A stretch of DNA of 64,000 nt from Pristiophorus japonicus (Eukaryota). The stretch is taken from contig NC_091995.1 of NCBI RefSeq assembly GCF_044704955.1, positions 19,778,001 to 19,842,000 of the forward strand, written 5' to 3'. A program made the position numbers and the translations under genes. The notes below the pieces were generated by a model. That model was not told the origin of the DNA. It did no database searches and saw only the letters and a program-made list of their open reading frames with translations. This document shows, one piece after another, positions 1-54,300 of this stretch (the first letter of the stretch is position 1; the number at the start of each line of letters is the position of its first letter).

Positions 1-2735
1 GAAGAAGTCAGGTACCCGCGAATCTTCCAAATTTGTCCATAGTCATGTGATACCCCAAAAGCATACCTGGAGTCAGTGTAGATATTAACTGTGTGTCCTT
101 CAGCCAGAATACAGGCTCGAGTTAACGCAAACAATTCGGCTTGTTGGGCTGAAAAGGAGTCTGGAAGAGAGGCTGTTTCGACAACATTAAACTGAGTTAC
201 AATTGCATAAGCCGCTCTAGGTTGGCCCCTATCATTTCGTAAGGCTGATCCGTCAACATAGTACACTAGCTCAGGATTACACATTGGTACATCTGTTAGA
301 TTGATACGTGGTTTAGTCACTAATTCGGTTACCATTTCACATGAATGGGGTTCGCCGTCGTCTTCCGTGGGGAGTAGAGTGGCTGGATTTAAGGTAGTAC
401 ATCTTTTGATGACAAGGTTCGGATTTGATAACAGTTCGACCTCGTATTTGGTGGTTCTTGCGGAGGTTAGGTGTTGGGTGGCACATTTAGTAAGTAAAAT
501 CTCGACAGAGTGTGGGATATATAAAATGGTCTGATGATTTAGAGTTATTGTCTGAGCCTGTTGCATAGCATAATAAGCTGCTGCCAACGAAGGAAGACAT
601 CCTGGTAGTCCGCATGCCACTGGGTCTAGTTGGGTACTGAAATACGCTACCGGTCGCTGCCTGTCCCCATGTAACTGAGTCAAAACAGATTGTGCAAAAC
701 CCGACTTGTGATGCACAAATAAGTTGAATAGCTTAGTGTAATCTGGTAATCCCAAGGCGGGTGCTGAAGTGAGGGACTGTTTAAGGTTCTGAAAAGCATT
801 CCGGGATACCGCATTCCAAATCAACTTCTCTGGTAGTGCGGGCATGGACATGTCTAACAGTGGTCTAACAATCTCGGAATAACTCATAACCCATTGCCGG
901 CAGTATCCTGTCATGCCGAGGAGGTGTTTCATTTCTCTCTTGGTTACTGGTAGTGGGGCAGAGCAGATTGCTTTTACTCGGTCTTGTGTCAATTGTCTCG
1001 TATCCCTGACCAATTCGTGCCCTAGATACCGAACCTTTTCTGAGACAAATTGTAACTTTGCCTTTGACACCTTGTGTCCTTTCGAGGCCAGAGCTTTTAA
1101 TAACACAAGGGAGTCCGTTTCGCAGGCCAATTTGGAGGGTGAGGCGAGCAATAAGTCGTCAACATACTGCACAAGTGTAGAACCTGCTGGTAAAATTACA
1201 TCTTCCAGATCCCTCTTTAGGCACTGTGAGAATATGGTAGGGCTCTCGGTAAATCCCTGCGGAAGTCTTGTCCACGTATATTGGCGTCCTTTATACGTGA
1301 AGGCAAACAGGAATTGAGACTCTGGGTGAATAGGTATTGAGAAAAATGCTGAACACAGATCAACTACTGTGTAATACGTTGATGATGCCGGAATACTGGC
1401 AAGTATAATTGCCGGGTTGGGTACCACTGGATAAGTTGGGAATACCGAATGATTCACGGCTCGTAGGTCTTGGACAAATCTCCATTTGTCACTATTGGGC
1501 TTCTGCACCGGAAAGATCGGTGTGTTACATGGACTTCTAGTTGGAACGATTACTCCCTGGGCCAGCAGGGACTTAATGACTGGCTCAATACCTTGTTCTG
1601 CGGCTGGGGACAAGGGGTATTGGGGCTTCTTGGGGAGCGGGGCGGTTGAATTGATTGCTACCTTATAGGGTTGTGCGGTAAGCATCCTCCCTACTTCATT
1701 AGCGTGTGTAGACCATAGTTGTTCTGGAACTTTAGCAAGAAGCTCTGCTGTGCTTTGTCGTACTGGGAAGCTAGTGGCTGAGAGCATCCTTTCTTCTAAG
1801 ACAGCATCGAAGTATACTTTCCCATTCAACCTGACAGAATAGCCTCCCCCCTTTTCATGTTGCCCCAAAGTTCCATTACGTGTGTGCCATTCCTCTTGTA
1901 CTGGGGATCCTTGCATTCTTTTAACCATCTGTCCTAAATCCTGGGGTTTATGTGTGCCTGCAACCGCAAGGGTGCAGTGTGGAACGCTCCCTTTAACCCT
2001 AAACAAGCTCTGACTGTGGGAGGATAATTCAACCCCTGCCGCTATCCCTTCGGGTCCGATAAAGATTTTTCCGATCATCAATTGATGTTTCTGGTGCAGG
2101 AATGGTTGATAAAAGATTTGTGCTGTAGCGTCTGATCCCGTTTTGTCACAATATGCTGTGCAGTGTAATGTTTCGTACCACTTGCCCAAGGTTTGAGATT
2201 TGAGGTAGTCTGTGATTAACCTTGTTACACACCAATATGAACCAACCAAATAGGATAGGGTTTTGCTTAGTGTGGGGTCCAAATTTTCCCAGGCATACAA
2301 TATGGGAGTTGTGGGTTGAAGTAGTGGATATGCGCCACATTTATCTATGGGGACTCGAACCTCCAGACCAGCTGGGGAACAGAGGATCGTGGCATTCATT
2401 TTACATAACAGGTCACGTCCACACAGATTCACTGGAACCTCTTTAGACAGTAGGAATGAATGACTATCTTCGTAATCCTCTATTTGTACATTGATAGGGT
2501 TGGAGAAAAACATTTGCTGTGCGTGTCCAGATAGTCCAATCACTGAGGTTTGATTAGTGGAAGTGGGAATTCCCCTCGTATCCTCCCTTGAAAGGACCGA
2601 ATAGGTGGCACCAGTATCCACTAGGAATGGGACATCCTTTCCTTGTATTCGTATTTTTACTTCAGGTTCTCCTATGGCATTTAACGAAACGACAGGAAGC
2701 TGTTTGTTCGCAGCACTCGGGTCTGGGATTGGGCG
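1..2735 (-). CDS. pol: Retroviral pro-pol (protease, 2H phosphoesterase, RT, RNase H; integrase lies outside the window)
   Basis: DTG (D codon 2616-2618), HCT (2163-2165 and 1977-1979), YVDD (Y 1164-1166) and RNase H DGS (D 252-254) are all in one frame, the same frame as the gag TGA at 2736-2738. Its absence from the ORF track is consistent with no stop before the window edge. Confidence 0.9.
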
Positions 2736-4480
2736 TCATTGATCATTATACGGGCAATTTGGTGGTTGGCCGAATTGCTTTTGATTCTGTGATCCAAATG
2801 GATCTTGCACAGAGAAATGAGTCTGAGGTCTAGCATGTACCTGGACTTGGGTCGCATACTGGTTGGGTTCTGAAGGGGGAGGGTGTGCTCTATTACCTGC
2901 CTGTTGAGTCCAATCATGATTTGGTTGTTGCTGTTTTGCCCGGCAAGTTCTAGCCCAGTGTCCAATCTGACCACAATTGTGACAGGTATAATATTGTTCC
3001 TGCCCTGCACCTCCTCTCCCTCTTCCCCTGTAATATCCTCCTCTGGCTCGCCCTCTTCCTCTACCCTGGGGTGGGGCGTAGGACGGTGTCACCGGGGTGG
3101 GTGTCATTGGAGCTGCTTGTCCTACAAACATGGTGACCTTGCTTTTAGATTCTCTATTTCGCTCTTGTATGTCCTTTAACATAGATACAACCTTGGATAG
3201 CGATTCCTGTCGCCATCCGAGACAAACTAGTTTAAAGGGATCTCTGAGTTCGGGCCGTAGCCCGTTTACCACGGCGCTGATCATAGGAGCCTCTACCTCC
3301 TCCATTTTCATGCCTGAACATTGGTTCATGATCTCTCGCACTCTTTCTACATAATCCTCAACATCCTCCTCCTTTCTTTGTGTAGTTTCCATAATTTTGG
3401 ACCAATTCGTTTTCCTCGGGAACACCGAATGTAAGGCTTCCCAACATCTTCCCCAGAACCCCTCTCCTGGCTTCGTGCTGGGATCTGCATCCGGAGCCTC
3501 TCGATGGGTTTTAAAATCTTTGAATTTTATCTCAAGTTCGGCAAATTTTGTGTCCTTTAACCATGCTTTCAGTAAGATTTGACCATCTAATATACTGGGT
3601 TCGTGGCACAAGATGATTACTTTTAACTGGTCTATGGCCTTTTCAATATTGGTTTTGGGGTCTGCCAATCCTTCCACAATTATTCTTAATTCACTTGGTG
3701 ACCATGGTCGATAAATAGGGACCGGAGCCCCCCCCGAGAGTGGACTGGGAAAAAGTCTTACTGGGTATACTGATGATGATGGCTCCAGGGCACTGGGCTC
3801 TGGTCCACGGGTATGACTTCGTGTGCCCCCTGCAGGGCCGTCACGGTATTAATTCCCTTGTGACTGACTTATATTTCCTGCAGCCTCACCTGTATTGTTG
3901 GGAGCGGGTGTTACCCCGTTTCCCTGTACTCCGGCCCGAGGATCATCTCCTCCTTGGCCTGGAGCACCCCCCGGGGATGGAACATACGGCGGTGGTCGAT
4001 GGCTGTAGGGAGTCCAATCCTCATCCCAGTCCTCATCCTCATCCTTATCCCAACCCTCCGGAGCCCTAGGTGAGTGTGCCTTTGTCTCTTTAGCAACCAT
4101 AACGGATGGGTGTTTGTTATGTCGAGGGCGTTTCACCTGCTCTATCCGTTCATCCCCCTGCTTTCTCCCTCTAGTACACTGCTTGCTAACTCTTAGGCTC
4201 TTCTCGTGTCGTTCCTCAGCTTCCCTTTTCCAATCTCCAAACGCTGACCAATTCACTTTTTTTTTTTTCCTCTTCTACCTGGGTCTCTGTCTATAAGGCA
4301 TTCTTCTAGACAGGTTATTCTCTCTAAATTGAATGAACCATCGGGTGGAAATGATCTGTTTTCACCCTTAGTCCATTTTACCCATTCTCTTAGGTGGTCA
4401 ATTGAAGACTGACCACAATTCTGGAGCATAAAATGGGCTGGGGTCCCTTTTGGTGGTGGTTTACTTGCTCCAGCCCCCAT
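2736..4480 (-). pseudogene. gag: Retroviral gag with one homopolymer frameshift and one premature stop
   Basis: The MA ORF 4253-4480 shifts frame at an A12 run (4257-4268). There is an in-frame TAA at 3849-3851, then an open frame through CA (YRPWSPSEL...) and NC (CHNCGQIGHWARTC) to TGA at 2736. Confidence 0.9.
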
Positions 4481-4920
4481 TCTGGATGATTTAAGATTTT
4501 ACCACAGTTTCTGATCTCACAATCCTTTCGGCCAACCGAGTTCTCTACGCCCACACTCCTGGCCGTTACGTGGCCTGAAAAGGCTCTTAATTCGGGCTCA
4601 GTCTGGGTGTGTGAGATATGTTGGCACGAACCAATCGTAGTTGATCAATCAGTTACTGTTTCTTTTCTTAATCAATCCTTGTGTTTTTTTTTCCGAATCA
4701 CAATTTTCCCTAGTGACTCTTCCCGTTTCTCTAATGGCAATGACTCACAAAGGTATTGCACACAACAGTAATACAAGGACAACAAACAATATTCCCGTGA
4801 GTACACAAATCATAACCTCTAAACAAATTCTCAGTCTGCGTTGTACGCCACTACAGACCGAGTCCTTAACTTATCCTAATAACAGCTGATAAAACTTAAG
4901 GTTCCGTACCCAAACTCTTT

Positions 4921-5142
4921 GATCGATTGCGCTCTTTTTTTTTTAATAGTCTTATCACATAAGAACCCCTTCCGAATTAAAAACAATAAAAATCTTATCA
5001 CATAAGAACCTTCGATCGATTATTAGCGCTTTCTTTTTTTTCTTTTCTTTTAATAGTCTTATCACATAAGAACCCCTTCCGAATTAAAAACAATAAAAAT
5101 CTTATCACATAAGAACCTGGAACCCTTTTCGATCGACTAGCG
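4921..5142. repeat. Direct repeats in the ERV 5' leader
   Basis: TTTAATAGTCTTATCACATAAGAACCCCTTCCGAATTAAAAACAATAAAAATCTTATCACATAAGAACC occurs twice. TCTTATCACATAAGAACC occurs four times and GATCGA..GCGCT three times. Confidence 0.85.
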
Positions 5143-5434
5143 CTTCCTTACCTACTGAAACCTTCCCCGGGCTGTCTCGAGATTTTTTTTTTCCAGAACC
5201 TGTTCTCTTCTGCTGGCGAGCTGAGAAAGAAATGGTTATAAAAAAAATACCTTTAACTTTTAAATGCCGAGTCTTGTAGATGCAGTACCTCAGCTATGGA
5301 CAACAGATTACATCTGCGATTCAACAGTGAAGAAACCTCTTGTGAGCAAAGGCTCACCTTGTTTGGCCACCGAAGCCTTTCACTGGAGAGGCACTATGCC
5401 TGTATCCGTTTTACTCACAGAACAGAGAGTATGC

Positions 5435-5452
5435 ATCTCGGTGGAACCTCCA
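5435..5452 (-). promoter_or_regulatory. Primer binding site, tRNA-Gln
   Basis: Plus-strand ATCTCGGTGGAACCTCCA equals the 3'-terminal 18 nt of vertebrate tRNA-Gln including CCA. It lies 5 nt inside the LTR end. Confidence 0.9.
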
Positions 5453-5457
5453 ATAAC

Positions 5458-6135
5458 TGTCGAAATCTCGACCTCAGAAAAGAATGACTCCGACACTTAC
5501 AGCTCCGATGGAAGTTTCCCTTTTAATTTACTTGCTCGCAAGGGGTAGGTTTCACTCAGTCAAGGGCTAAATGAAACCTCCGCAATGGTACAGCTTCACA
5601 AGATATTTATACAGTAAAACCCAAGTTCTGGCCTCTCCCTGTGTATTGCTCTGTCTCACAGTCAGTGAATACAGATAAAGAGTTAATTACTATATCCTGG
5701 TCCTGAAATGGTGTCAAGATATTTCCTTTTGTCAGGGTTATCAGAAAGCCAAACGGCCATTACTCCATGAGTCATAGGTAATGGGCTATCACCTGTCTTG
5801 TATTGTATCAGGATTATCCAATTTCCTGGTCAGTTTACCTGTTTGCTTCAAATGGATGAGGTAAAGGAAAGAGATAATGGCTAGAAGATAAGGGTGGGGT
5901 GACATGGAACTCCTGTAGTGTAGACAATAGGAGAGCACCATGGGGGGTTACTTGTCTCAGCATGACTTGTCTCCTAACTGTCTGATAACCATCAGCCATC
6001 TAACAGCAGGTTTAGCTGTTCATAATAAGCTGGCTGCTAAAATGCAGAAAGTTCTGGAAGGGCCAGGACTCCATTTTAATTAAAAGGCACACAAATACCG
6101 TATGGTATCAGCTTAGATAAAAATACATTTCCACA
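5458..6135 (-). repeat. ERV 5' LTR (678 bp)
   Basis: The minus strand begins TGTGGAAAT and ends ATTTCGACA (8/9 inverted termini). TATAAATA is at 5604-5611 and ATTAAA at 5522-5527, and the LTR abuts the PBS. Confidence 0.85.
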
Positions 6136-7575
6136 GTCGACCGCTGCGTCGCTCCCGGTGTTCCGGAGGTGGGGTGTGCTGGGCACTTCGCTGCTCCCGT
6201 TATCCCGGGGCTGGTCTGCGTTGGTTACTCCTTCGCTCCCGGTGTCCCGGAGCTCGTGTGCGCTGGGACCTTTGTTGCTCTCTGGTTCCTGGGGCAGGGC
6301 TGTGTTGGTCGCTTTCCTGCTCCCGTTTTTCCGTGGCCGTGGGATGGCGCATTGCCTCTTCTTCAGGCGGTGGCACTTTTCCTCATCAGACAAGCTGCCG
6401 TCGCTGGTTTCTGCCGAGCTTGGTGGTAGCCTCTTGGCCTTGCGCCTTTTCCCTACTGTCTGCCATTCCGCTTCCTCGTCTGATGTCAGCTCGTCTCTGG
6501 GTTCGGTGCTCTGGGGGCGAGGTTCGCTGCTGGCTGCTGGTGGCTCGCAGCTCGCGGTAGCAGTGTTCTCTTCCTCGCCGCCTTGTCCCGAGTTCATGGT
6601 CGGGGGGAGGGTGTGGCTCTCCTCTGGAGCGTTGTGTTCGTCAGCTTCCTCCTCCTCTGGTGCAAAGTTCTTTGCTGCCTGCGCATAGCTGCGATTGCGT
6701 TTGGGGCAGTTTTTGTAAAGGTGCCCAGCCAGACCACAGAGGTTGCAGCACTTGGTCTCCTTGCAGTCTTTTGACTGGTGGCCCTCGTTCTTGCAGTTTC
6801 GGCAGATGACCGTCTTGCAGCTTGCCGCCACATGGCCTGCCTTCCCGCAGGTGCGGCACACGTTGGGTTGGCCAGCGTACACCATGTAGCCCCGGCTTCC
6901 TCCGATGGAAAAGCTGGAGGGTGGGTGCAGGATGGTTCCGCTGGCGTCCACCTTCATGGTGACCTGGATCTGGCGCTTGCTGGTCCATATTCCGTGCCCG
7001 TCTTTCACGTCACTGCTGCTTCCTGCCCCATCGACAAACCTGTTGAGGAAAGTCAGCACATCGATGACGGGGATGTGGGGGTCGTACATTTGCACTGTGA
7101 TAGTGCGTCTTCGCTGCGACGGGAGGGTGAACAGCGGCTCCCAAGTTAGCACTGAGCGCACCGGTTCACTCGCCTCCTTCAAACCCTTCAGGAACTTCAG
7201 GCAGAGGGTGACGGTTCTGAAGGTCACATCGAAGTAACCTCTCTTCGGGAGGTCCTGCAAGGCAAAGACGTCGGCGACTTTCATGCCACATGTTCCCAGC
7301 AGGATTTTCTTCACGAAAAGTTCCCGGTTGATCATTGTCTGTCCTTCCACTTTCTTCACCGTCACTCGGATGGTGTTTCGGACTCCCTGGTTCGCCGCTC
7401 GGTTGGCCGCCATCCGGGTTGCAGATTCCTCCTTTCGCTGTGAGTTTTGGCCGAAGCCTTCATTCTCTCGTTGCCCCAGTCCGGGGCACGGGCGGACCTC
7501 CTGGTCCACCCCTTGACAGGCCCAAAGGCTCGTCGAATCGTCAGTCGACATGCAGATTTTGTCTCCTCTCTCCAA
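6136..7575 (-). mobile_element. Tx1/L1-clade non-LTR retrotransposon ORF1 (RRM-like region plus 3 CCHC knuckles), interrupted by the ERV LTR
   Basis: ORF 6076-7575 has CRTCGKAGHVAASC, CRNCKNEGHQSKDC and CNLCGLAGHLYKNC, with an N-terminal VRNTIRV...YFDVTF region typical of Tx1 ORF1/ZCCHC3-like proteins. The last ~19 codons are read-through into the LTR. Confidence 0.85.
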
Positions 7576-7665
7576 TTGGCGCCTGGCTCAAGCCAAAGGC
7601 CAGAGCCAGCAAAACTGGAAAAACGAGTTTCTGCAGTCAGTCGATTTGCATATGAATGCCCAATC

Positions 7666-7705
7666 AACAGGTACTCCACTTGATATTAGCCAAAAGGCCG
7701 AGGAG
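7666..7705 (-). pseudogene. U2 snRNA 5' fragment (nt 5-44) at the LINE 5' end
   Basis: CTCCTCGGCCTTTTGGCTAATATCAAGTGGAGTACCTGTT versus U2 CTTCTCGGCCTTTTGGCTAAGATCAAGTGTAGTATCTGTT gives 36/40 identity. Confidence 0.9.
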
Positions 7706-7719
7706 GTCGTGTGAGATAT

Positions 7720-8059
7720 TTTTTTTTTTTTTTTTTGAAATTCGTAGCCAATCGTTCCAATTCTTTGTCAAATCACAAACGCCAGAGGTCACCTTGCACA
7801 CGCCAAGGATCACTCTGCGCCAATGCTCTTAGCCAAAAGGCCTAGAGCCACTGCACCGTTCCTGGAAGTACTGCAATACCAGGTTCGTGCCATGGAGGTG
7901 GATGGGTCAGGTCCCCCACACACCTCCGTGGAGGTGGATGGGTCAAGCCACCCCACCCACCTCCTGTTTCCAAAAAAGCAAGCATATACCTTCCTGATCC
8001 AGGGAGAACCACCCGGAGGTCATGGTGGCTGGTCAGGTCAGTTACGCATGATCTTAGCC
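7720..8059 (-). mobile_element. U2/U1/U2 snRNA-chimeric polyadenylated retroposon (SINEU-like)
   Basis: The minus strand reads U2 nt 19-29, a U1 5'/stem-loop I-like segment, a U2 Sm-site/SLIII-like segment, U2 SLIV (7852-7884, 32/33 to human U2), U2 nt 11-26 again (7827-7842), a unique tail and poly(A). It is flanked by TGTGAGATAT at 7710-7719 and 8060-8069. Confidence 0.85.
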
Positions 8060-8075
8060 TGTGAGATATATGACA

Positions 8076-8205
8076 GTTAGGGTTAGGGTTAGAGTTAGTG
8101 GTTAGGATTAGGGTTAGAGATAGTGGTTAGGATTAGGTTTAGAGTTAGTGGTTAGGATTAGGGTTAGAGATAGTGGTTAGGATTAGGGTTAGAGATAGTG
8201 GTTAG
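8076..8205 (+). repeat. Telomere-like minisatellite (TTAGGG variants; ~25-bp unit GGTTAGGATTAGGGTTAGAGATAGT)
   Basis: Directly visible tandem TTAGGG/TTAGGA/TTAGAG/ATAGTG variants. Confidence 0.9.
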
Positions 8206-8293
8206 TTTTAAGATTGGGATCACTGGTTAGTGAATTAGGATTAGGGTTGTTGACCACAACACAAATCAGTATAAAATTAAAAGAACCACTCAC

Positions 8294-8590
8294 ACTTACC
8301 TTCGGAGCACTTTCCCTCTCTCTGCCCCGCCGGCGATGCTGGATCGCTCTGGTTTCCCAGGCGGTCAGAGCAGGTGCACTTCCGGGTGGACGGATCGGGC
8401 AAAAGTGCAAACTACTGCCGGTGTGACAACCAGAGGTGTTGTACACCCGGTGCAGCTCTTCCCGGCGGTGCTGCTCAGTGCCACCACAAAACCGGACCGG
8501 AGGATGGTGACGGGACGCAGGAGACCTGAACGCTGCCTTTCACACCGCTCCGGGGCGAAACCCAGAGCACCAAGGAGTGGAACATCCAGC
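8294..8590 (-). promoter_or_regulatory. CpG-rich promoter/non-coding first exon candidate
   Basis: CpG-rich block with ETS-like CACTTCCGGGT (~8377-8387) and a consensus donor AAG|GTAAGT on the minus strand at 8300/8299. The paralogous donor is at 36326. Confidence 0.45.
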
Positions 8591-9106
8591 CCATAATATT
8601 CTGAGGGGGATTGACAGGGTGAAATCTCTTCACTCACAGGGTGGTGAATCTTTACAATTCTCTACCCCAGAAAGCTGTGCAGGCTCCGTCGTTGAGTATA
8701 TACAAGACAGAGATGGATAGATTTTTGGATGTTCAGGGAATCCAGGGATATGGGGATAGTGCAGGAAAGTGGCGTTGAGGTGGATCAGCCACGATCTTAT
8801 TGAATGGTGAGCAGGCTCAAGTGGCCGAATAGTCTACTCCTGCTCCTATTTCTTTTGTTCTTGTGTTCCCCCCATCGCCTCAAATCTAATATTCCTGTAT
8901 GGCCCTGCCCCACCCATGGGACTTCACACACAATGGGTGGTCTGGTGGGAACTTACAGATACATTGCCCACCATTTTCTTTCTATTTTAAATGGTGAAAA
9001 TTCTCAGGCAGCACATGTGCATCATAAACTGTCGTTGCTGTGAAGCCCCATCAGTGGCACAAACCATGGAAAATTCTCTCCATTGTCTTCAAATTAAACC
9101 TAAAAT

Positions 9107-9718
9107 GTATCTGTACTGATGTTAATCCAGCTCCCTCACACTGTCACTCAGTAACCCCTCCCCCAGCACTGTGTTACTGACTGTATCTGTACTGATGTTA
9201 ATCCAGCTCCCTCACACTGTCACTCAGTAACCCCTCCCCCAGCACTGTGTTTCTGACTGTATCTGTACTGATGTTAATCCAGCTCCCTCACACTGTCACT
9301 CAGTAACCCCTCCCCCAGCACCCTGTGTTACTGACTGTATCTGTACTGATGTTAATCCAGCTCCCTCACACTGTCACTCAGTAACCCCTCCCCCAGCACT
9401 ATGTTACTAACTGTATCTGTACTGATGTTAATCCAGCTCCTTCACACTGTCACTCAGTAACCCCTCCCCCAGCACTGTGTTACTGACTGTATCTGTACTG
9501 ATGTTAATCCAGCTCCCTCACACTGTCACTCAATTACCCCTCCCCCAGCACTGTGTTACTGACTGTATCTGTACTGATGTTAATCCAGCTCCCTCACACT
9601 GTCACTCAGTAACCCCTCCCCCAGCACCGTGTCACTGACTGTATCTGTACTGATGTTAATCCAGCTCCCTCACACTGTCACTCAGTAACCCCTCTCCCAG
9701 CACCCTGTGTTACTGACT
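9107..9718 (+). repeat. 76-bp minisatellite, ~8 copies
   Basis: Unit TGTATCTGTACTGATGTTAATCCAGCTCCCTCACACTGTCACTCAGTAACCCCTCCCCCAGCACTGTGTTACTGAC. Confidence 0.95.
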
Positions 9719-9719
9719 G

Positions 9720-9900
9720 CGGTTGAGGAGCGCGCGTCATCTGAAAATCAAAGGCCAACGTCAAAACCACGCGTGGCCGGAGGGAGGAAGCGCGCGGGGA
9801 TAGGGAGGCTGTGATTGGAGGATCGGCGAGTGTCAGCGCCGGGGGCGGGGCGGGGGAGAGAGAGAGCAGGAAAAGGGGAGTCTGTGATTGGCTGAACGAG
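9720..9900. promoter_or_regulatory. CpG-rich promoter-like block
   Basis: Two GATTGG (reverse CCAAT) boxes, a GC box GGGGCGGGGC, and CGCGCG/CACGCGTG motifs. Confidence 0.45.
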
Positions 9901-10179
9901 TGTTATTTGCAGACAGTGAGGAGGGAGAGGGCACCTCACTAACACTGGGGGAGGGTTTCTGCTTTGGGTCCAATCAACAATCTGGGCACAAATTGCACTC
10001 AAACTGGCGCTCGGTACGGGTCTTTAAACTGTTTTTGCTTTGGACAGGATTTGGGGAAGAGCGGGATATATATGTGTGTCGTTAAGTTCTGTCCAGTATC
10101 ATGACACAACGGGCAGGATAATTCCAACACAGGTTCCTAAAGGGGCCGGCACAAGGAATCTCCTGCTTAAAGAGAGAGC

Positions 10180-11120
10180 TGAGAGTGATATTGGCCTTGG
10201 AAGAAGAGCAGTGCAGGTTGACCAGAATGATAATGGGGCAAAAAGGGTTAAATTATGAGGACAGGTCACACAGACTAGACTTGTATTCCCTCGAGTGAAG
10301 GAGATTAACGGATGGTCTAATTGAGGTGGTTAAGATGATTAAAGAAGTTGATGGGTTAAATAGAGAGAGAAACTACTTCCTCTGGTGTGGAGAGTCCAGA
10401 ACAAGGGGGAATAACCTTAACATTAGAGCTCGGCCATCCATGGGTGATGTCAGGAAGCACTTCTTCACACAAAGGTTAGTGAGAATCTGGAACTCGCTCA
10501 GCAAAATGCTGTTAAGTCTGGAATCAATCGGAAATGGTAAAACTGAGATTGATAGATTTTTGTTAGAAACATAGAAAATAGGTGCAGGATTAGGCCATTC
10601 GGCCCTTCGAGCCTGCACCAGCATTCAATAAGATCATGGCTGATCATTCACCTCAGTACCCCTTTACTGCTTTCTCTCCATACCCCTTGATCCCTTTAGC
10701 CCTAAGGGCCATATCTAACTCCCTCTTGAATATATCCAATGAACTGGCATCAACAACTCTCTGCGGCAGGGAATTCGACAGGTTAACAACTCTCTGAGTG
10801 AAGAAGTTTCTCCTCATCTCGATCCTAAATGGCCTACCCCTTATCCTAAGACTGTGTCCCCTGGTTCTGGATTTTCCCAACATCGGGAACAATCTACCCG
10901 CATCTAACCTATCCAGTCCCGTCAGAATCTTATACATTTCTATGAGATCCCCTCTCATCCTTCTAAACTCCAGTGTATAAAAGCCCAGTTGATCCAGGGT
11001 AAGGGTATTGAGGCATTTGGAACCAAACCGGTTGATGGAGTTAAGATACAGATCAGCCACGATCTAATAGAAAGGTGGAACAGGTTCGAGGGGCTGAATG
11101 GCCTGCTCCTGTTCCAATGT
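10180..11120. mobile_element. Nested CR1 LINE 3' fragments (a plus-strand copy interrupted by a minus-strand copy at ~10565-10995)
   Basis: RT C-terminal motifs SRTRG..L...FFTQR.V..WNSL on both strands, with a CR1 tail TTTCTATGTTTCTA. Confidence 0.85.
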
Positions 11121-11654
11121 TCCTCTGTCGTAAACCCAACCCCACAGTCAGAAGGACAATTCCAACATGCACTACATTCCCCCTGGCCCACAGAAGATAC
11201 ATTTTAGCCTGTATTTCGATCATAATTATAATAATCTTCAACGCAAAATGTATTTAGGATTTAACTAGGACCAGAGGAAATCATGAAAGGGTTTATGATA
11301 TTGCCAGATAGACAATCCCCCTCTCTGCCCCATTATTAGTATATTGTTGCCTTGGTCACCTTACAATAACTTGAGTGTTTCAGTGCAGACAGATGCAGGC
11401 TCGAGATCCCACGGCTGGGCTGATGTGTGCATTGTCCTTCTCCACAAGGCTTCTGTGCCAAGTCTTCCAGTGGTTCAGGACCTACTGTTCACTGGAATTT
11501 TATTAATGGACCTGACATCAAAGGTGTCCCGGCTGGAGGACCATCGAATGAAAATGTTAACGTGCGGAGAGAATCCATTGTTAATGGTGTGTTGGTCTTC
11601 AGATTTGAGGAGGCGATATTTAAACCCCTTGTGTCAGATCCAGTTGTTGATAAT

Positions 11655-11845
11655 GGGGGGAGCAAAATTAGAACACGGGCGGGGGCACAAAACGGGCGGT
11701 ATCGCATTGGTCACCCGTTATACGCCCGGCCCGATATTCAGTTCCGTTGACGTCAATAGCACTCAATTTTGGGCCTGTGATATAACGGGCACCAAATACA
11801 ATTCCACCTGTTTTGTGTCCCCCCACCTAAGTCCAATTCCACCCC
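11655..11845. mobile_element. Palindromic MITE-like element
   Basis: Imperfect ~95-bp inverted arms (GGCACAAAACGGGCGG...CCCGTTATA / TATAACGGG...CCACCTGTTTTGTGTCC) around a central TTGACGTCAA (11747-11756). Confidence 0.7.
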
Positions 11846-12436
11846 TACGGTCTATTGAACAAAGGGTCAGAGCTGCAGCCGTCACAGTTCCGTTGCTCCT
11901 CTCTGCTTTCTTGGTCTGCACAGACCCGTTGTCTTATTCCGGATGGCAACTCAACCCATTATCACCCGATTCATTTTTATTTCAGAATGTTATGACCGTC
12001 TTATCTGTATTGTGCCGAAAGAGTCTTATTTGCTTCTTGAGTCCTGCCGTGTCAGATTGTACAAACCGCTATTTTAGAGCGTCGCAGTGAATTGGACGAC
12101 CCGTATTGTTCTGTTATGTTGGAAAGTGAATGGTGATCATTTCTACCTTGTACATTGCACAAACCCATCAGGATTTGATATCTCAGGATGCATGGATGGC
12201 TTTAACACCCCGCTCACTGTAATTGGTAAGGACGTATTTATAATAAAATGTTTCTGTATATTCTGTTACACTACCTTGTAGTTTCTGCTGTAGTGATGTA
12301 CTGATTAATAGCACACTGTTCGGCACGTATGACTGAATCGGGGGTAAATAAAACGGGGCAGGATATTCTCTGCCCACAATGTGTTAGCGACGTTATAAAC
12401 ATAAGCGGAAAGATTTTCAACTGAAGTTGGAAAATG

Positions 12437-12870
12437 AGTGGTAGCCTCTCAGTGAGAAGGTCGTGGATTCAAGTCCCACATCAGGGACTTGAGCCCAAAA
12501 TCTAGGCTGGCACTCCAGTGCAGTACTGAGGGAGTGCTGCACTGTCGGAGGTGTCGTCTTTCGGGATGAGATTTAAACTGAGGCCCTGTTTACCTTCTCA
12601 GGTGGTCATAGAAGATCCCATGGCACGATTTCTGTGACGAGTAGGGGACTTCTCCCCGGTGTCCTGGTCAATATTTACACCTCAAACCAACACCTAAAAA
12701 GAGATTATGTGGCCCTTTATCTCTTGCTGTGCACAAATCGACCACCGCGTTTCCTACAATACAACAGTGACTACACTTCAAAAGTAATTCATTGGCTGTA
12801 AAGTGATTTGGGACATCCTGAGTTTGTGAAAGGCGCGATAGAAATGCAAGTCTTTCTCTTTTTATCTATT
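12437..12870 (+). mobile_element. tRNA-derived SINE, DeuSINE/SacSINE1-like
   Basis: B-box-like GGATTCAAGTCCC, Deu-domain-like GCACTGTCGGAGGTGTCGTCTTTCGGGATGAG and an L2-like tail AGGCGCGATAGAAATGCAAGTCTTT. Confidence 0.7.
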
Positions 12871-13470
12871 TCTTTCATTATTTCTTTCTTTTTCTCTCCC
12901 TTTCTCTCTCTCTAAGAGCAACAATGAACCCAACACCCTTTCCCTGGACCATCCTTGTCTTGTGTTCCCAGTGGGGTCCCGCCAGCTGACCACACAAAGT
13001 TCATCCCAACATTCCGGTACTTATCCCAGAACCTCTTTGTGTGGGGCTGGCTCCTGGCTAGGCTTCCCACACTGATACATGGAAATATCAGTCGGTTTGA
13101 CATCACGAATACGGTTTGGTTTCTAAGCCAAGTTTCGGAGCTGTGAAGACAAATCGCCCCAGCGCCACAAATTCAACCGGATAAATTAAACTGAACTCAA
13201 TTTTACCGATTTCTACTGGGTGTTATCCTGAAGGAATATTGCTGCATGTTGGTCCAAAATGTGCATCCATCAGTATTGGAAACAATTTTGTTTCCTTTCA
13301 ACAGAAGGACCACCGATATATGTCCAAGTGGAGATGGGGTGTGACTTGGTGGGGAACTTGGGGGTGGTGGTGTTCCCATGCACCTGCTGCTCTTGTCCTT
13401 CTCGGTGGTGGGGGTCAGGGGTCAGGGGTCAGGGGGGTTCTGTTGTAGAAGGCTTGGTGAGTTGCTGCCT

Positions 13471-13545
13471 GTGGTGGAGGGAGTGGGTGTTTAAGGTGGG
13501 GGAGGGAGTGGGTGTTTAAGGTGGGGGAGGGAGTGGGTGTTTAAG
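13471..13545 (+). repeat. 25-bp G-rich VNTR, 3 copies, within a LINE fragment
   Basis: Unit GTGGGGGAGGGAGTGGGTGTTTAAG. Confidence 0.85.
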
Positions 13546-14319
13546 CTGTTGAATGGGCTGCTGATCAAGCTGACTGCTTTGTCTTCTATTGTGTTCGGAT
13601 ATTTATATATGTGTAAGTTATATTTAAAATTCCTGTTCAAATAAAGTCACTCTTCAAATGCACCCATTGTCATTTGAAAACATATTCTTCCTGTGACCAT
13701 AAATGCTGTTGCCTCAAATCACAAGGGATAGAACTGGTGGTACTGTTGGTTACAGAGGAAACAATTATTTATTTAACCTAAGTGTATGAAATTTTGCTTT
13801 TCATTGTGTGATTGACATTTAGAACTCGCAGCAATTGAAACCTCGTGTTCAGGGAGTTACAATATATTTGGGAATGTTAAAGGACCCCACTTTTGACCTA
13901 TCATTGGATATCAGGACACCTTCATTGCATATTACAGTAAATGGAACATTTTCACCTGTAGGTATTTTCTCAAAACATGACCACCAATGTTGAAACAATG
14001 TAAAGGTGTGTGTGAACTTCCATGGTTGGAGATTGGGAAGCTGTGCAATACCAGGTCAACATCTTGGCAGAACCACACTGCCGGCTGGTGACCAAATGAG
14101 TCCCTTCAGCACCTGGTTATATCTGTGGAGACGACCAAAGACACCAATAGTCAACACGGCACGCTGTCTGTCATCTGCTGGCAGCCTCTCACTTTACCGG
14201 GCTGACACACCCCTTAACCCATGCTTTTCTGTTTTTGTCCGTGCACATCGGGTACAATCTACAAGAACAATCTGATCAACAAATGTAACAAGATCTGGTT
14301 AGGATAAAAGTGCACAGGG

Positions 14320-14905
14320 ACATAGGAACAGGAAGAGGACAGACAGTCTCTCAAGCCTGTTCCATCATTCACTTTGACCATGGCTGATCTGTATCGTAAC
14401 TCCATTTATCTGGTTTAGTTCCATATCCCTTCAGACCCTCACCTAACAAAAATCTGTCAAAGTCAGTTATGACCTTTTCAAACAACAACCAGACTCAACA
14501 CCTTTTTGGGGAAGAGAGTTCCATATTTCCACTACCCTCTGTGTGAAGAGGTGCTTCCTGACATCACCCCTGAACAGCCTGGCTCTAATTTTAATGTTAT
14601 GCCCCTTGTTCTGGAATCCCCCACCAGAGGAAATAATTTCACTCTTATCGACTGTATCAAATACTTTAATCATCTTAAACATCTCAATGATATCAGCCCT
14701 TAATCTTCTATACTCAGCGGAATACAAGCCAAGTCTATGCAACCTGTTTCCATTATTTAACCCTTTTAGCCCAAGTATCATTCTGGTCAATCTGTGCTGC
14801 ACCCTCTCCAAGGCCAACATATCCTTCCTGAGATGTGGGGCCCAGAACTGAGCGCAGTGCTCCAGATGTGGTCTGACCAGAGCCTTATACAACTGGACCA
14901 TTACT
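14320..14905 (-). mobile_element. CR1 LINE 3' fragment
   Basis: ORF 14467-14973 contains LYKALVRPHLEHCAQFWAP...FTQRVVEIWNSLP. Confidence 0.85.
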
Positions 14906-15976
14906 TCACCTTTTAAGGCAAGTAACAGAAATAAATAAAGTACATTGCCCAAGAATTTCCGCTTTGAACGCAATCAGCAATCCGGGCCCAAATTGCGTCT
15001 GTTTTGAGAAGTTTTATTTCTCGAGTTCCTGCTCAAACTCATTTGCATATATTGGAACAAACCAGCGCAACAGACGGAAAGTCCAGGCCCCAAAATGGAC
15101 AAAGGACGTAGAAAACTAAAGCAGCGAGAGGCCTGAGGCAAAGGGGAGAAAATGGCAGAGATGGGAAACAGGAAACATCCGGACAGAAAGGGTGAATTTA
15201 AAACACACTTTTAAACTAAAACACAAGTTGGTAAAAGTACAGCGGACCAGAGAAGGGACAGAACAGGTGAAGAGGGAGGGCACAGCCTACCTCCCCCAGC
15301 TCTGTGGTCTGACCAAGGATTCCCCCAACGCAAACACCAACCTGTCTCCCCCTTCCCTGGGCACCGACAGAACCCGCTCCCCACCCCTCCCCGAATATCT
15401 CTGGAGATATCTGGTCCCTGATCGATTTATACAGCTCTCTGACGGGCATTTTCCGTACTTTGCCCGTGGATCCCAAATACCAGTTTTGCTCTATTTATTT
15501 CCCCACCCAAGAACAAGGCCCAATTATTGGGAGACAGTAAATGAAAGTGCAGTTAAATGAAAGGTGTTGCACACAGTGATGAGTTGTGCGCCCAGCGTCA
15601 TTCTGTCCAAAGTGAACTAACAAAGTGAGTGCGCTGGGTTGTTAGTGAACCATTAACCTTTTTCTCTCCACTTTCCATATTTGCATCTCAGCACTTTGTG
15701 AGCAGGAAGGAGTTGCCTATAGGCTGGAAAAACAAGAAATGTACCACAAATAACAGCATTCCTCACCACCTCACACACTTCACCTTTTTTGTATTGGTTC
15801 ACACCTTGAGCACAACATATTCCCAAGTGTACAGAGTCTGAGTGAGTTTACAGAGAAAAACATAGAAGTTACAACATGGACACAGGCCATTTGACCAAAC
15901 CGTCCATGTCAGCATTTACCCTCCACCAAAACCAGTAATTCTATTCACATTTAACCGTCCTGTTCCCATATCGCAT

Positions 15977-16708
15977 TCGGTAACGATCGGAGGGTCGGGG
16001 GATCGAGGGGGAGGAGGGGTGTCGGTAACGATCGGAGGGTTGGAGGATCGAGGGGGAGGTGAGGTGAGGTATCGGTAACGATTGGAGGGTTGGAGGATCG
16101 AGGGGGAGGAGGGGTGTCGGTAACGATCGGAGGGTCGAGGGATCGAGGGGGAGGAGGGGTGTCGGTAACGATCGGAGGGTCGAGGGATCGAGGGGGAGGA
16201 GGGGTGTCGGTAACGATCGGAGGGTCGGGGGATCGAGGGGGAGGTGAGGTATCGGTAACGATCGGAGGGTTGGAGGATCGAGGGGGAGGAGGGGTGTCGG
16301 TAACGATCGGAGGGTCGAGGGATCGAGGGGGAGGAGGGGTGTCGGTAACGATCGGAGGGTCGGGGGATCGAGGGGGAGGTGAGGTATCGGTAACGATCGG
16401 AGGGTTGGAGGATCGAGGGGGAGGAGGGGTGTCGGTAACGATCGGAGGGTCGGGGGATCGAGGGGGAGGTGGGGTGTCGGTAACGATCGGAGGGTTGGAG
16501 GATCGAGGGGGAGGAGGGGAGTCGGTAACGATCGGAGGGTCGGGGGATCGAGGGGGGAGGAGGGGTGTCGGTAACGATCGGAGGGTCGAGGGATCGAGGG
16601 GGAGGAGGGGTGTCAGTAGCGATCGGAGGGTTGGAGGATGGAGGGGGAGGAGGGGTGTCGGTAATGATTGGAGGGCCAGTGGATCGCGTGGGCAGTGTCG
16701 GTAACGAT
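15977..16708 (+). repeat. 45-bp G/CpG-rich minisatellite
   Basis: Unit TCGGTAACGATCGGAGGGTCGAGGGATCGAGGGGGAGGAGGGGTG, about 16 copies. Confidence 0.95.
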
Positions 16709-17511
16709 TTGGGCCAGAGGAGCAAATCGTGGGTCAGAGCAGCGGTGGGACGATTGGATGGCTGGAGAAGTGAGGGGCGGGGGGGGCGATCGAGGGGAGA
16801 GGTCTGGAATGACCGGGGAGCAGAGGAGAAGCAGGGGTCTGGAGCAGCAGATCGGGGGCAGGAGGAGCGGATTGGTGGCAGGAGGGAGTGTGGGGGGGTA
16901 GGATTTGGAATATCCGGGAGGAGCAGGAGTGGGAGATGGGGGCGCTGGGGGCGGGGTGGGTGGAGGAGGCAGACGACATCGGAGGACGGGAGGAACATGG
17001 GGAGGGGGATCGGAGGCCTCGGGGCTTGTCCGATCGTGGGGAGGGGGTGAGGCAGGGACACTGGATCCAGGAGGTAAGTGTAAAGGTGCTTACCTCCTGG
17101 ATCCAGCAGTACTCACCTTCCATTAGCTGGCGGCTTTCACCAGGCCTGAAAAACCCAACCAGCTGCAGTTACATTTAAAATGGAGGTTAAATCTGAGGCA
17201 CGCCAGCCTCATTATAATATTTAAATGTTGACCCGCCTCCTGGGAGCGGATTGGCTGCCCGGCCTGGCCCCGCCTCCGTTAATACCGGAAGTGGGCGGGT
17301 TGGAGGCGGGTTCTGGTCAGGATTCAGATTTTAACACTTTAACTTCCCACCCGACCACAACCCACCCGTTTTTGGGGTTAAAATTCCCCCCATTGTCACT
17401 CGGTTGTACCCGGCCTGACCTCAGGTGACATTGGGACCATCCGCACCACCTGTGACTGAGACCGACGACCATCAGTTTGCAGCTGGCAGGAGGCAGGGAG
17501 GTGGTGTGAAA

Positions 17512-20500
17512 TTATGGGATGGACAGGTTAGTGACCTTTGACCCACAGATTGTCAGCGGGGCGGAGTTTTTCCTGCCGTCACTCTGTCCCGGACTGAAGA
17601 TGGGAAAGAGTGTCTCAGTGAAAGTGTGGGTGAAGGTGTGGAGATGGGACATGTTGTCCGCATTGTAAAATGTCACCTGTCCCCCCTCATAGTCCAGGAA
17701 CACCCCGATCTTCCGGGGATCCCCACTCGGGGTGAGGGGGGTCAGTGAGGGGGAGGTGAGGGCAACATAGACACTTCCGGGCACTAGCCACACAGTCCAG
17801 TATCCGGCCTCAGGTCTCAGGCTGATTCTCCCTTTCCTGTTGACAGACTCTCGAGCCACTCCCACACCCCACCGTGTCTTGTTCCCCACCTCCACCTCCC
17901 AGTAGTGTCTCCCTGATGTGAATCCCTCCGATCCCAAGACATAGAGACAGGGATCAAACCTCTCCGGGGTGTCAGGGAGCTTCTGCCGTTTGTCTCCGAG
18001 TCTCACACTGGTCCGGTCCTCAGACACGATGAGCCAGGGATTCGCTGTGTTCAGATCCAGAGTCAGAGAGGCTGGAGCTGGGGGAAAGTTACAATAACAC
18101 AGTGAGCGGTTTAGTTTGTTGCTGTGATTTATTCAAACACTTTCCCTTTTTAAAGTGGCCATTCGGGGGATTCCCGGGAACTGCGGTGTGTTTAAAGGGC
18201 TCCAGGTTCTGTTATTGGAATCTGCTCTGACCCGGGGGTTTACACTCCTGGGGTCACTCTGACCTCTGCTGACCACTGCGATCTGACCAGGAACTCTGCG
18301 GCCCCCGGTCCCCTGCTGTTCTCAGCGGCTGCAGAGTGACCCAGGGACCTTCAGAAACACACAGGGAATCGGCACCAGAGGCTACGGCGGGGCTTCCGAA
18401 CGGAAGAGGGGGAAAGGTGCAGGCACCGGAAGGGAAGAGAGAAGGGAAGAGGAAAACGGAAAAGAAGCAAAAGTGGGGGAACTGCTGCAGAGGGGAAGAG
18501 AGAACCCAGAGGAGGAGGGAAATTATATTAAAAAAACAGCATCATTATATCCATAAATCACAATAGTCTCCAACACACAATCCGGCAAAACTAAACTGAT
18601 GGACATAAAAGGACAGGTGGAAGCGGCATTTCGACAGGAGACCCTCCTCATCGCCCTCAGAACACACCAGGTTTATGAGTGAGTGGGTGGTACAAATGCT
18701 GGCCGCCTTCTCCTCAGCCAAGAGCAGAGGACAGTCACACTAATCACCAGCAACCTCCCCATTACTCTGGAGATACACATTCCTGGAGAAGGAGGCCGCT
18801 CCATCCTAATGAAATTTGATGAACAGGAGAACCCAAAGTGATGCTTCAGTTCAGTGTCCGGAATGAGGAGTCCCCACATCAGCATTCCTCACACTCGCCC
18901 CACCTATGGACAGCACAGGAACCAGGAGTGGAGACCCAAACTGTGCTCTTCACTCCAAACAGGACAAGCTCCCAGCGGACACAGGACACGAGGACCAGCA
19001 GCCGGAGCAATCCGAGATCAGTGTGGTGTCCTGGGCCGAGAGGATGTATAGTGGGCCCACACCCCAAAGAGAAGGAATTCACCTTCTACTTGAACCCACA
19101 CAAGACACACTCCAGGATCGGCTACTCCTCCCTGAAGCATCCCGTCTATCCCACCTAACCTGTTGTGATAGGAGGTAAACAGGACTTGCACCAATTATCC
19201 TCCATTCAGTCCTCGGAGCCTCAAACCTTCCTTCCTACATGACTCAGAGTTCCTGCCTACCTCTAGGCGAAGCTCATCTCCTCACATATACCCTAAGGTG
19301 GAAAATGCAGGACTGAACTATTGCACACGGTCACTCTGTGCCCTAATCTCAGACAGTGAGCTCTAACCTGGAAAATCCACACCAACTGACACCCACCCTA
19401 CCAAGATTAACATCCCATAATCCCAGAGCTTTCTCCCCTCCAACTGAACCTCCCACACTCTGTACTGGAGACACAGAACCAGATACTCTGAAATACATCA
19501 CAATCATGTCAATACATAAGAAAAGTAAGGTTTTCCCCACATGGTCACCATACACACTCCTTAATGCTGACTATAAAATATTGGCCAAGGTCCTGACCTC
19601 CAGACTAGACACGGACATCAGTGATCATTTAATCTGGGGTCTGGGAGCCGGTTTAGGCTCCTCTCATCTGGGTTTATAAATCAGGGAAAGGAATATAAGA
19701 GTTTTACCGGGGTTAATGGTGTCTATCATTTCTCTCCACGCTGTGTACTGTAAGGGGCCGTTGAACTTTCCGATCGACAGCTTGTCATCTGCTAATGATA
19801 GTTTATAATAATCCTCACCAGTCCTGTAAATATTAAACAGTTGATGTTATAAATTGACCATAAACACTTTGCTGAGTTATTTTACTAAATTGTGCAGAGT
19901 TTCAGTAAACAGTTTGTCCTACCTCCTCTTCTGACACGTTTCCTCCTGAAATCAATAAAACACAAATCTGAGTTAACGGAGACTGACCGTCTATATCCGG
20001 ACAGCAGAAATTACACCCACATAGTTACAAGATGCTGATAATTCCCAATTCTCACTGCCGGGACCACACAGAAAGAAAGAGGATATATTTGAAAACTGGA
20101 CAGCAGAAATTTCACCAAAAACTATGAAAATCATCTGATAGATAGATCATTCAGTTGGGAAAGTGATTTAGTTGTCAGGTTGTGGAGGTCGGGAGGTGAG
20201 TCACTGAGTTGGGAGTCCATGAGTTCGGCGAGAGGCCTATAAAGGCCGCGAGGTCGGGAGGTGCGTCACTGAGTCGGGAGACCGTGAGTTCGGCGAGAGG
20301 CCTATAAAGGCCGCGAGGTCGGGAGGTGCGTCACTGAGTCGGGAGTCCGTGAGTTCGGCGAGAGGCCTACAAAGGCCGGGAGGTCGGGAGGTGCGTCACT
20401 GAGTCGGGAGACCGTGAGTTCGGCGAGAGGCCTATAAAGGCCGCGAGGTCGGGAGGTGCGTCGCTGAGTCGGGAGTCCGTGAGTTCGGCGAGAGGCCTAT

Positions 20501-25964: not shown

Positions 25965-25994
25965 GTTCACACTCAGCACTTCCTGATTCAACCC

Positions 25995-26050
25995 ACTTTC
26001 AGTTTCAATGTTGCTGAGCTCCAGCTGGATCCTGTCACTAGGTGGCGCTG
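25995..26050 (-). promoter_or_regulatory. ISRE-like element and CTCF-like motif upstream of TRIM copy A
   Basis: ACTTTCAGTTTC (GAAACTGAAAGT on the coding strand) at 25995-26006, ~30 bp before the ATG, with an adjacent ETS CAGGAAGT. TCACTAGGTGGCGCTG is at 26035-26050. Confidence 0.6.
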
Positions 26051-27821
26051 CTGGACAATATTTCTCAACCAAGGATTTTTGTAGGTTTCCTGAAAAAGAT
26101 TTTGTTGCAGGAAAACCACACATTTGCTTTCTGTGCAGTGAAGGGCCGTATTAAACAAACCGATTTACTCTGTGCATCAGTTTAATGTTGTATGGAGCCA
26201 GGAAACAGGCTCTAAAGGTGTAGAAATAATTGCTCTAATTTCAAATGTTTTGCAGGTGATGTGAATATGTCAGAAACTGATAATTATCCTGGATTTGTTA
26301 AACTATTTAATTGCACCATCCTCCATACATTGATGTGCTTTTTATAACAGTTTATTGATTTAATGTGAGGTTTTGGGGGATGTGCCGTTATGTTGCTCCA
26401 CATGTTGGCCCAGATTTGAAGTTTGGAGCCACCTCTGGTCATATTTCAGGCCCGGGCAATCTGAAAGTGAGAGGTGGGCGGACTGGGCGGAGTCTTGCTG
26501 AATTCCCGGGGAGTGGGGTACATCGGGTGGGGGGAAGAAGGCAGCCTCCTAACTGCTGGAAACACATTCTTGTGCTCAATTCTCACTGCAGCTGGTGGTG
26601 TCCGGGCACGGCCGTGCTACAGGAGCGCTTGTACAGACCTGGAACTATCGAATCCCTAAAGCCCCTCTCTTTATCCGTGCAGATGTTGGTCTGAGCAGCC
26701 ACCGTTATCCGTGCAGATGTTGGTGTGTGCTTCCTACAGCTGGTGACTGCCCCCATTAAACCCCGAATGACTGTATCCCCCTCTCTCCAATTATGCAGGT
26801 CCCGGTGTGTGTCCCTTACAACCGGATCCACCACAATTACCTGCCAAGTACATTGTGGAACAACCCACTCTGCATGGACCGAGCGAGACCCAGTGTGAGC
26901 GGATGTTTGGGGCGGTTTTCTCCTTCGTTCTTAGCCGCAGGGCCATGGGTCTGTTCAGCTCAGGGGAGTCTCTGAATCTGATTTTAAAATACATAACCAT
27001 ATATAAATAAATAAATCAATGGATACTATTCTGGAAATAAAACAGAAACTAATTATTTAAAAATTAAGACTAGTCCAATTAATTTGGCTCTGATGCTTTT
27101 GTCTTGATTCTCGTACAGACTGTTTTAAAATCAGAAGTTGTGTTTGATTTGTGGTAAATATGTAAACGTGCTCCGTGACACAGTTTTGTGTGGTTCAGAA
27201 GGTGAGTGAAGAAATGATCGATATATTACTGACATTAGCTCAGGATGGGGGCAGGCTCCCACGGTCCTGGCGATCTGTTCTGGTCCTGGATACACAAACA
27301 TAAACAAAACCAAGACAGGCCAGATAATGAGCAAGTGCCTGGATGATCCGTGTCTGACCGTTACAGTATAATAATCCCACATTAAAGGGGAGCTTTTCAA
27401 TGAAGGGCTAACCTGAGAATAGTTCAGAAAGGTACAGCTTTCATCGTACAATAATTGGTAAACCGTTTTACATGTCTGACTGTACACAATGTGGGAAATA
27501 GCATCAAAATACAGTTTGCTGTAATTTACAAGTTTTACCTCACCTGAGCCAAGCTGACACACTTGTCTTCATGCATCACACCCATGTACCCTACAACGCT
27601 GTTATTAAACGACTCACCTCCCTGCACCTTTCCCACCTTTAAAAGCTTCCTGAGAACCTGCAGCATTAACTATGGGCCTTGGCTCATTTACCCCAACTCT
27701 TCTCACCCACTCATCAATGTTTGCAAGCTCTTGAAATATTTTGCTACATCACTGGAGTTGTTTGCAAATACCTTGTTCTATTTCTACTTTTATATAATCA
27801 AAACCTTTGTGTATTTTTTAA

Positions 27822-54270: not shown

Positions 54271-54300
54271 GTTCACACTCAGCACTTCCTGATTCAACCC

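Follow-up and report, generated by a model that had tools for sequence, protein, structure and literature searches.

The window considered here, i.e. the whole 64,000-nt stretch of the Pristiophorus japonicus genome that was analysed (NC_091995.1, positions 19,778,001 to 19,842,000), carries near its left end a pile of retroelements whose coordinates are collected in Table 1. As a whole, the stack is composed of SINE-A, a LINE and SINE-C, with copies of a target duplication in between, all lodged at one LTR site; it is the outcome of successive insertions at one site within that LTR. This site lies at about +6 of the host LTR, the remainder of which is found outside the window, past the third element, with the partner LTR of the host retroelement 5.9 kb further on, and the unbroken target can be seen in three empty copies of the host LTR. 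An endogenous retrovirus (ERV) interrupts the LINE; its second LTR is located outside the window and the two LTRs are 99.4% identical. Past the left end of the window (G000:C19, about 19771.2-19775.4 kb), the remaining 4.15 kb of the LINE were recovered with a broken ORF2, the longest frame of which is 605 aa, followed on the 3' side by a poly(A), a third target copy of 16 nt, a SINE of subfamily C, another poly(A), a fourth target copy and the LTR remainder. The original prediction, which expected stacking at a single site and a further target copy beyond the ERV, was thus correct on both points. The window copy of the LINE is in itself a dead, off-target and ordinary insertion.

Table 1. Features of the stack and of its immediate surroundings (positions in the window)
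Feature	Position	Strand	Remark
ERV interior	1..5455	-	
LTR of the ERV inserted into ORF1	5456..6135	-	4-bp duplication
ORF1, 5' part	6136..7551	-	broken off by the ERV; 569 aa in intact copies
LINE 5' UTR, remainder	7552..7665	-	motif taken to be octamer-like, and long hairpin
LINE head, U2-derived	7666..7705	-	U2 nt 5-44
Target duplication, copy 2	7706..7719	-	14 nt, outside the LINE proper
Poly(A) tail of SINE-A	7720..7736	-	
SINE subfamily A, 5'-truncated	7737..8059	-	nt 19-341 of 341
SINE-A, second U2 stem-loop I piece	7846-7823		followed by the SINE's own tail
SINE-A, U2 3' half	to 7851		
SINE-A, U1-derived piece	about 8042-7993		
SINE-A, U2 5' piece	8059-8049		
Target duplication, copy 1	8060..8069	-	10 nt
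First 6 nt of the 268-bp LTR (LTR retroelement)	8070..8075	-	from empty copies L119-L121 and the partner LTR
25-bp satellite hosting the LTR retroelement insertion	8076..8248	.	

Regarding the surroundings, positions 1-6135 correspond to a young ERV with broken reading frames, seated in ORF1, whereas positions 8076-26988 and 36102-55294 belong to a 28-kb tandem segmental duplication, 96-98% identical and containing several satellites, the second unit of which lacks the stack. Elsewhere, a 99% near-duplicate of the 3' half of the stack is present at G000:C19:20.05 Mb (L123, L178, L179), where the junction between the ERV LTR and the LINE falls at LINE nt 4515 instead of nt 1575, by either a deletion or a separate insertion. 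Within the ERV, at 4610, the target 10-mer turns up once more; with no element next to it, this occurrence was taken as chance.

Full copies of the LINE, as found in a search of the 5.9-Gb genome, are 5.73 kb long and encode an ORF1 of 569 aa and an ORF2 of 1145 aa. In the window, the ORF1 frame, on the minus strand, extends from 7551 to the border of the ERV at 6136, and its product has two ZCCHC3-type RNA-binding domains as well as zinc knuckles; the 1145-aa ORF2 of an array copy (see below) exhibits the domains PF03372 (APE), PF00078 (RT) and PF13966 (zf-RVT). The 5' end of the element was originally placed directly at the target duplication and in the same orientation, which holds for the shared 10-mer (7710-7719 and 8060-8069), but the LINE really starts at 7705, since 7706-7719 is a 14-nt copy of the duplication. 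From there on, the head (7705-7666) matches nt 5-44 of a U2 gene of the same genome at 36/40 positions, exactly as predicted, with an alignment score of 64 that none of 1000 shuffles reached (best shuffle 32), and within the window no U2 gene flank lies upstream of it. The second U2-like motif that had been pointed out is present at 7591-7601, although on its own it does not rise above chance (55/1000 shuffles). A long hairpin of the 5' UTR takes in this second GGCC-TTT-GGCT motif, and the 5' region of an array copy folds with a z of -4.6, none of 200 shuffles folding as strongly; the motif at 7651-7644 is one that we take to be octamer-like. Related Tx1 families are present in the genome at 80-88% identity (80% in L019). 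Besides, the same site in ORF1, at LINE nt about 1693, was hit by two separate insertions, one of a LINE and one of a SINE (L047; G000:C2321 stack).

The U2 head is an inherited part of the element, as had been supposed. Among 20 genomic copies, chosen by likeness to the 5' end of the window LINE, T34G recurs in 19/20 and T39C in 20/20, so that only half of the four substitutions originally expected to recur do so: these two are family marks, whereas G25T (0/20) is confined to the window copy and T7C is junctional. An exact 26-mer spanning the head-to-UTR joint occurs 56 times in the genome (reversed control, 0), and an exact 34-mer of the LINE tail 113 times. That every copy instead acquires its head afresh, through a template switch to U2 snRNA, appears very improbable in view of these non-U2 bases, G34 and C39, and of the 56 copies with the same joint, even though one array copy carries the canonical U2 1-44 and repeated 5' additions are documented for the crocodilian SINEU, for which this very route was proposed (PMC4494074, accessible text). 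For nt 34-44 of the head, template switching is largely refuted; nt 1-33 could be refreshed from the target gene. Of the two marks, G34 is the later one because an older LINE at L071 has T34 together with C39 in its head. This locus (G000:C14:76.77 Mb) is an isolated and diverged piece of U2 array holding an older LINE subfamily (88-93%).

The U1/U2 chimera, originally described as an element, is indeed a real one, namely a SINE of 341 nt that the window holds with its 5' end truncated (nt 19-341). The parts of the full SINE are, in order, U2 1-29, a U1-derived piece, the U2 3' half, a second piece of U2 stem-loop I and a tail. The match to U2 nt 1-28/29 is exact, and the U1 piece scores 35 against a U1 gene of the same genome (0/1000 shuffles). 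It was also considered whether the chimera could be the 3' end of another LINE, and this was rejected: it stands as a SINE by itself, flanked by duplications of its own, and lacks similarity to the LINE tail. At least three subfamilies (A, B and C) exist. Subfamily A counts 185 exact 33-mer heads genome-wide, and seven other genomic copies are 100% identical to the window SINE-A over 323 nt. In the main U2 arrays, all 18 SINEs are of subfamily B, none being of subfamily A or C. The 40 best full-length copies of subfamily A are all dispersed; no subfamily A master behind a promoter was found in the flanks of 20 of these 40, six more being dispersed and the other 14 lying outside this test. An older SINE of about 236 nt was noted as well (L154-L173, L183-L190), built of a U2 that is nearly complete apart from a small deletion within it, joined to another U2 5' piece and a short tail; its build recalls SINEU-3, and younger SINEs and LINEs are often inserted at its nt 38.

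The junction between U2 upstream DNA and the U2 gene occurs 290 times in the genome, in tandem units each about 760 bp long; their uninterrupted genes score 192 bits against the Rfam U2. The array census covers 221 of these 290 units, in 306 kb, about 69 lying outside it; of the 221, 189 are uninterrupted, 15 hold a LINE, 16 hold a SINE and one is a spacer artefact. In all 31 cases the inserted element closes with poly(A), after which the gene resumes at U2 nt 38; LINE and SINE use the same U2 nucleotide as insertion site in the arrays. On the 5' side, the marked head starts exactly at U2 +1 in 12/15 LINEs, one shows the canonical U2 1-44 ahead of the LINE, and in two U2 1-50 and about 37 extra nt precede the head; the SINEs start at U2 +1 in 16/16 cases, two further array SINEs being alike. 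Overall, 29/31 elements start in register with U2 +1. In most array LINE copies, the head takes the place of nt 1-37 of the gene, whose upstream DNA lies directly before it. The array SINEs begin at +1 but their U2 match ends at nt 28, and therefore U2 nt 29-37 of the gene are gone.

Array copies of the LINE, pairwise 99.3-100% identical (19 distinct of 20), are about 98% identical to the window LINE and sit inside genuine U2 arrays at nt 37/38. Copies within genuine U2 genes, which the original prediction had itself named as contrary evidence, do exist, and its view of a Keno descendant now inserting elsewhere has to be abandoned: the family is recently mobile and has not departed from U2. 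Both ORFs are intact in 16/20 array copies vs. 3/17 dispersed ones (Fisher p = 0.0002), in a comparison where the dispersed set was chosen by likeness to the older window copy and is thereby biased towards older copies; the intact ORFs of array copies may reflect youth alone. The 31 array insertions do not equal 31 events, because array turnover may multiply copies.

As for the layout of the arrays, 16/17 U2 units are interrupted at G000:C19:69.62-69.73 Mb (L053-L064), compared with 15/204 units, plus the spacer artefact, on four unplaced contigs; inserted units seem to pile up at one array end. U2 genes of a second type, which differ in their 3' flank, recur every 18-21 kb (L167, L172, L184; G000:C9 110.9-113.8 Mb, C1033), each gene being preceded by a short and older (about 82%) LINE tail.

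The family also leaks out of its target, with 14/56 exact heads inside U2 arrays and 42/56 outside. Over 41 distinct dispersed sites with a readable duplication, drawn from 49 rows, in a few of which the left flank is the poly(A) of another element, the sole clear common feature is an A at -1 (39/41), with a weak T bias at +1/+2; no U2-like consensus was found at these 41 sites. Joints between poly(A) and U2 nt 38 were recovered at another 30 loci, of which 29 lie outside the main arrays, and 25/34 such joints lie in the older U2-derived SINE, so that U2-like sequence is a preferred site even in dispersed copies. Targets that could be recognised comprise U2 genes, SINEs derived from U2, an LTR as well as the LINE's own sequence. 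In the C19 cluster, four LINEs have entered the head of another LINE at its nt 38 and one LINE a SINE head, on which grounds the idea that the head substitutions serve as self-protection was rejected. The window's own target fares no better as a family target: the 16-mer occurs five times in the genome, i.e. in three empty LTRs, at the window locus and in one near-duplicate, only the latter two being filled, and ATATCTCACA, put forward as a target shared by LINE and SINE, was consequently rejected. On these grounds, a Keno descendant that has given up U2 and now prefers ATATCTCACA together with the SINE is scarcely credible; the 42/56 heads outside U2 arrays, the window copy among them, would fit, but this reading has to face 15 LINE insertions in U2 array units, a 16-mer filled at the window locus and its near-duplicate only, and 41 dispersed sites sharing just the A at -1.

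A few further target features were observed along the way. A recurring secondary target lies in another repeat (L010, L018, L022, L025, L026, L129, L205), these loci holding several independent SINE/LINE stacks with the same flanks. Two dispersed LINEs are located within 2-3 kb of U1 genes (G000:C2321:267.8-270.8 kb; C18:112.10 Mb, L153), an uncontrolled observation that may suggest some attraction to clusters of snRNA genes.

LINE and SINE are frequently found together, the SINE tail lying directly upstream of 11/30 dispersed LINE heads vs. 0/60 control windows. In the C2321 stack, identity falls from 99.7 to 98.2, 97.3 and 90.0 going 5' to 3', and bases of the downstream element are present in the upstream duplications; this gradient and these bases suggest that the newest copy entered the upstream target copy. 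The order in the window agrees, with SINE-A 100% identical to seven copies, the LINE 98% to array copies and SINE-C 94.5% to A, whereas some SINE-only stacks (L015, L022, L026), measured against the subfamily A reference, display no steady gradient. Concerning the autonomous/non-autonomous pair originally proposed, the insertion site is common to both elements but no common tail was found: between the SINE tail and the LINE 3' end no relation was detectable (score 23, shuffle mean 22, maximum 35). The pairing accordingly rests on shared sites rather than on a shared tail. The SINE could then be moved by a different Tx1 family that also prefers this U2 site, the stack being just a shared hot spot with no partnership. 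The lack of a shared tail and the relatives at 80-88% identity both speak for such a mover, which is quite unlikely all the same: the only LINE in the arrays read is of the window's family, young and intact, with near-identical SINEs at the same nucleotide.

The reading that best accommodates these observations, and to which we give a probability of about 0.68, is that of a leaky Keno-type Tx1 LINE which, together with a SINEU-like partner, would multiply in the U2 arrays by putative use of the U2 promoter. Within it, the identity of the element as a leaky U2-targeting Tx1 LINE with an inherited head is very likely, whereas capture of the U2 promoter by LINE and SINE is only somewhat favoured. 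The head would act as a homology arm, pairing with the 5' part of the target when the insertion closes, and would be swapped for the first 37 nt of the gene, the SINE doing likewise. An array copy placed behind the U2 upstream DNA would be transcribed from +1 by the U2 promoter; array copies would thereby be the source copies, and the U2 array the breeding ground. Dispersed copies, including that of the window, would inherit the head and be mostly dead ends. ORF2 of the LINE would move the SINE as well, and in a stack the newest insertion would enter the upstream target copy. The lack of a shared LINE/SINE tail and the existence of related Tx1 families are counted against this reading as a whole.

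In favour of array sources are counted the excess of intact ORFs, the nesting of the youngest dispersed LINEs and the 5' ends reaching at most 5 nt into upstream DNA. Four dispersed LINEs with at least 99.5% identity group within the array copies, and older ones branch off outside them. The 5' ends of dispersed copies stop at or inside U2 nt 1, 4/30 LINE heads reaching nt 1 with an upstream match of 0-5 nt, and 20/20 SINE copies picked for reaching nt 1 have unrelated flanks with a match of 0-2 nt. Against promoter capture are counted the lack of a PSE, the absence of array copies for the SINE subfamilies of the window and a possible array turnover. A PSE shared by U2 and U1 upstream DNA was not found, 761/1000 shuffles scoring as well; since the two upstream regions share no motif, no PSE could be pointed to. 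That an snRNA promoter would have to yield a poly(A) RNA of 5.7 kb counts against promoter capture too.

An internal promoter, located in the head or the 5' UTR, would make the U2 head a relic or a homology arm only, and dispersed copies could then be sources. This is rather unlikely but draws on several facts, namely that SINE subfamily A, young and numerous with its 185 exact heads, accounts for 0/18 array SINEs, that three dispersed LINEs keep both ORFs intact, and that the UTR combines the octamer-like motif with strong structure. The missing array copy of subfamily A is weakened as an argument by the units lying outside the census (about 69/290), the arrays being maybe collapsed in the assembly; moreover, U2 nt 1 forms a sharp limit for the 5' ends, the young dispersed LINEs group within the array copies, and no internal promoter was found in SINEU (PMC4494074, accessible text).

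If true, U2-promoter capture in U2 arrays would explain the transcription of SINEU-type elements and provide a living intermediate between Keno in the strict sense and the Tx1-Mar/SINEU system with its U heads. A single family moreover keeps to an exact RNA-gene target while also leaking genome-wide, and target switching in Tx1 could start in this way. The transcription of SINEU was left open in PMC4494074, as far as its accessible text goes, because snRNA promoters lie upstream of the gene, and upstream promoters were suggested; the question is now testable, since young LINE and SINE copies lie behind U2 upstream DNA, in +1 register and with many LINEs intact. In the openly accessible main texts covered, no SINEU-type element outside crocodilians and no U2-promoter capture came up, and the accessible parts of two reviews (PMC5753468, PMC5381603) make no mention of a LINE/SINE arrangement at U2 +1.

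Among known systems, Keno, Utopia, the crocodilian Tx1-Mar/SINEU pair and R2 come closest. The best named relatives, among the matches listed, are newt (47-49%) and frog (37-44%) proteins, and no Keno-named match appears among the 120 proteins and 10 clusters listed. Keno is said to have been described by Kojima and Fujiwara in 2004 as a U2-specific LINE of the Tx1 clade. Its insertion lies 37 nt into U2, with a 3' flank from U2 nt 38/39 on (PMC6136364, accessible part). Like Keno, the P. japonicus LINE possesses an APE endonuclease and an RT, inserts 37 nt into U2 and has the same 3' flank; unlike Keno, it has three quarters of its headed copies outside U2 arrays, so that, with 42/56 heads elsewhere, U2 specificity does not hold and the element is not classed as a Keno in the strict sense. 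Its own marked U2 1-44 head, its insertion into its own head and the SINE at the same site are unreported for Keno in the accessible literature. Utopia shares the U2 3' flank of Keno and is known for tandem insertions and for families with weakened specificity (PMC4640811, accessible part). These three traits are found again in the P. japonicus LINE, the ORF2 of which, unlike Utopia with its restriction-like endonuclease, has an APE domain.

In crocodilians, SINEU is a U1/U2 mosaic with poly(A), for which no LINE-derived tail was found; some families of Tx1-Mar LINEs, which cluster with Keno, have U1/U2 heads, tandem insertions sandwich a target duplication, and SINEU was found in crocodilians only (PMC4494074, accessible text). 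The target of Tx1-Mar is Mariner-N4 DNA transposons and its LINE families are old, at 85-87% to consensus (PMC4494074, same part). The P. japonicus LINE and SINE likewise both have snRNA-derived heads. The SINE is a U1/U2 mosaic with poly(A), with no LINE-derived tail found, and it occurs in tandem insertions around a duplication; just as SINEU, it is short (341 nt), poly(A)-tailed and multi-copy (185 exact heads), with target duplications, and has a target preference in common with a Tx1 LINE. Unlike Tx1-Mar and SINEU, both P. japonicus elements are young and reside in U2 genes at +1, and an origin of the SINE independent of crocodilian SINEU-1/2/3 is just as likely as a common one.

Beyond U2, R2 offers a parallel, being thought to rely on the transcription of its host gene. 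It lives in the tandem 28S rDNA array (PMC4494074, accessible text). In the same way, the P. japonicus LINE lives in a tandem RNA-gene array, but it differs from R2 in clade, target and polymerase, and appears to take the start site itself.
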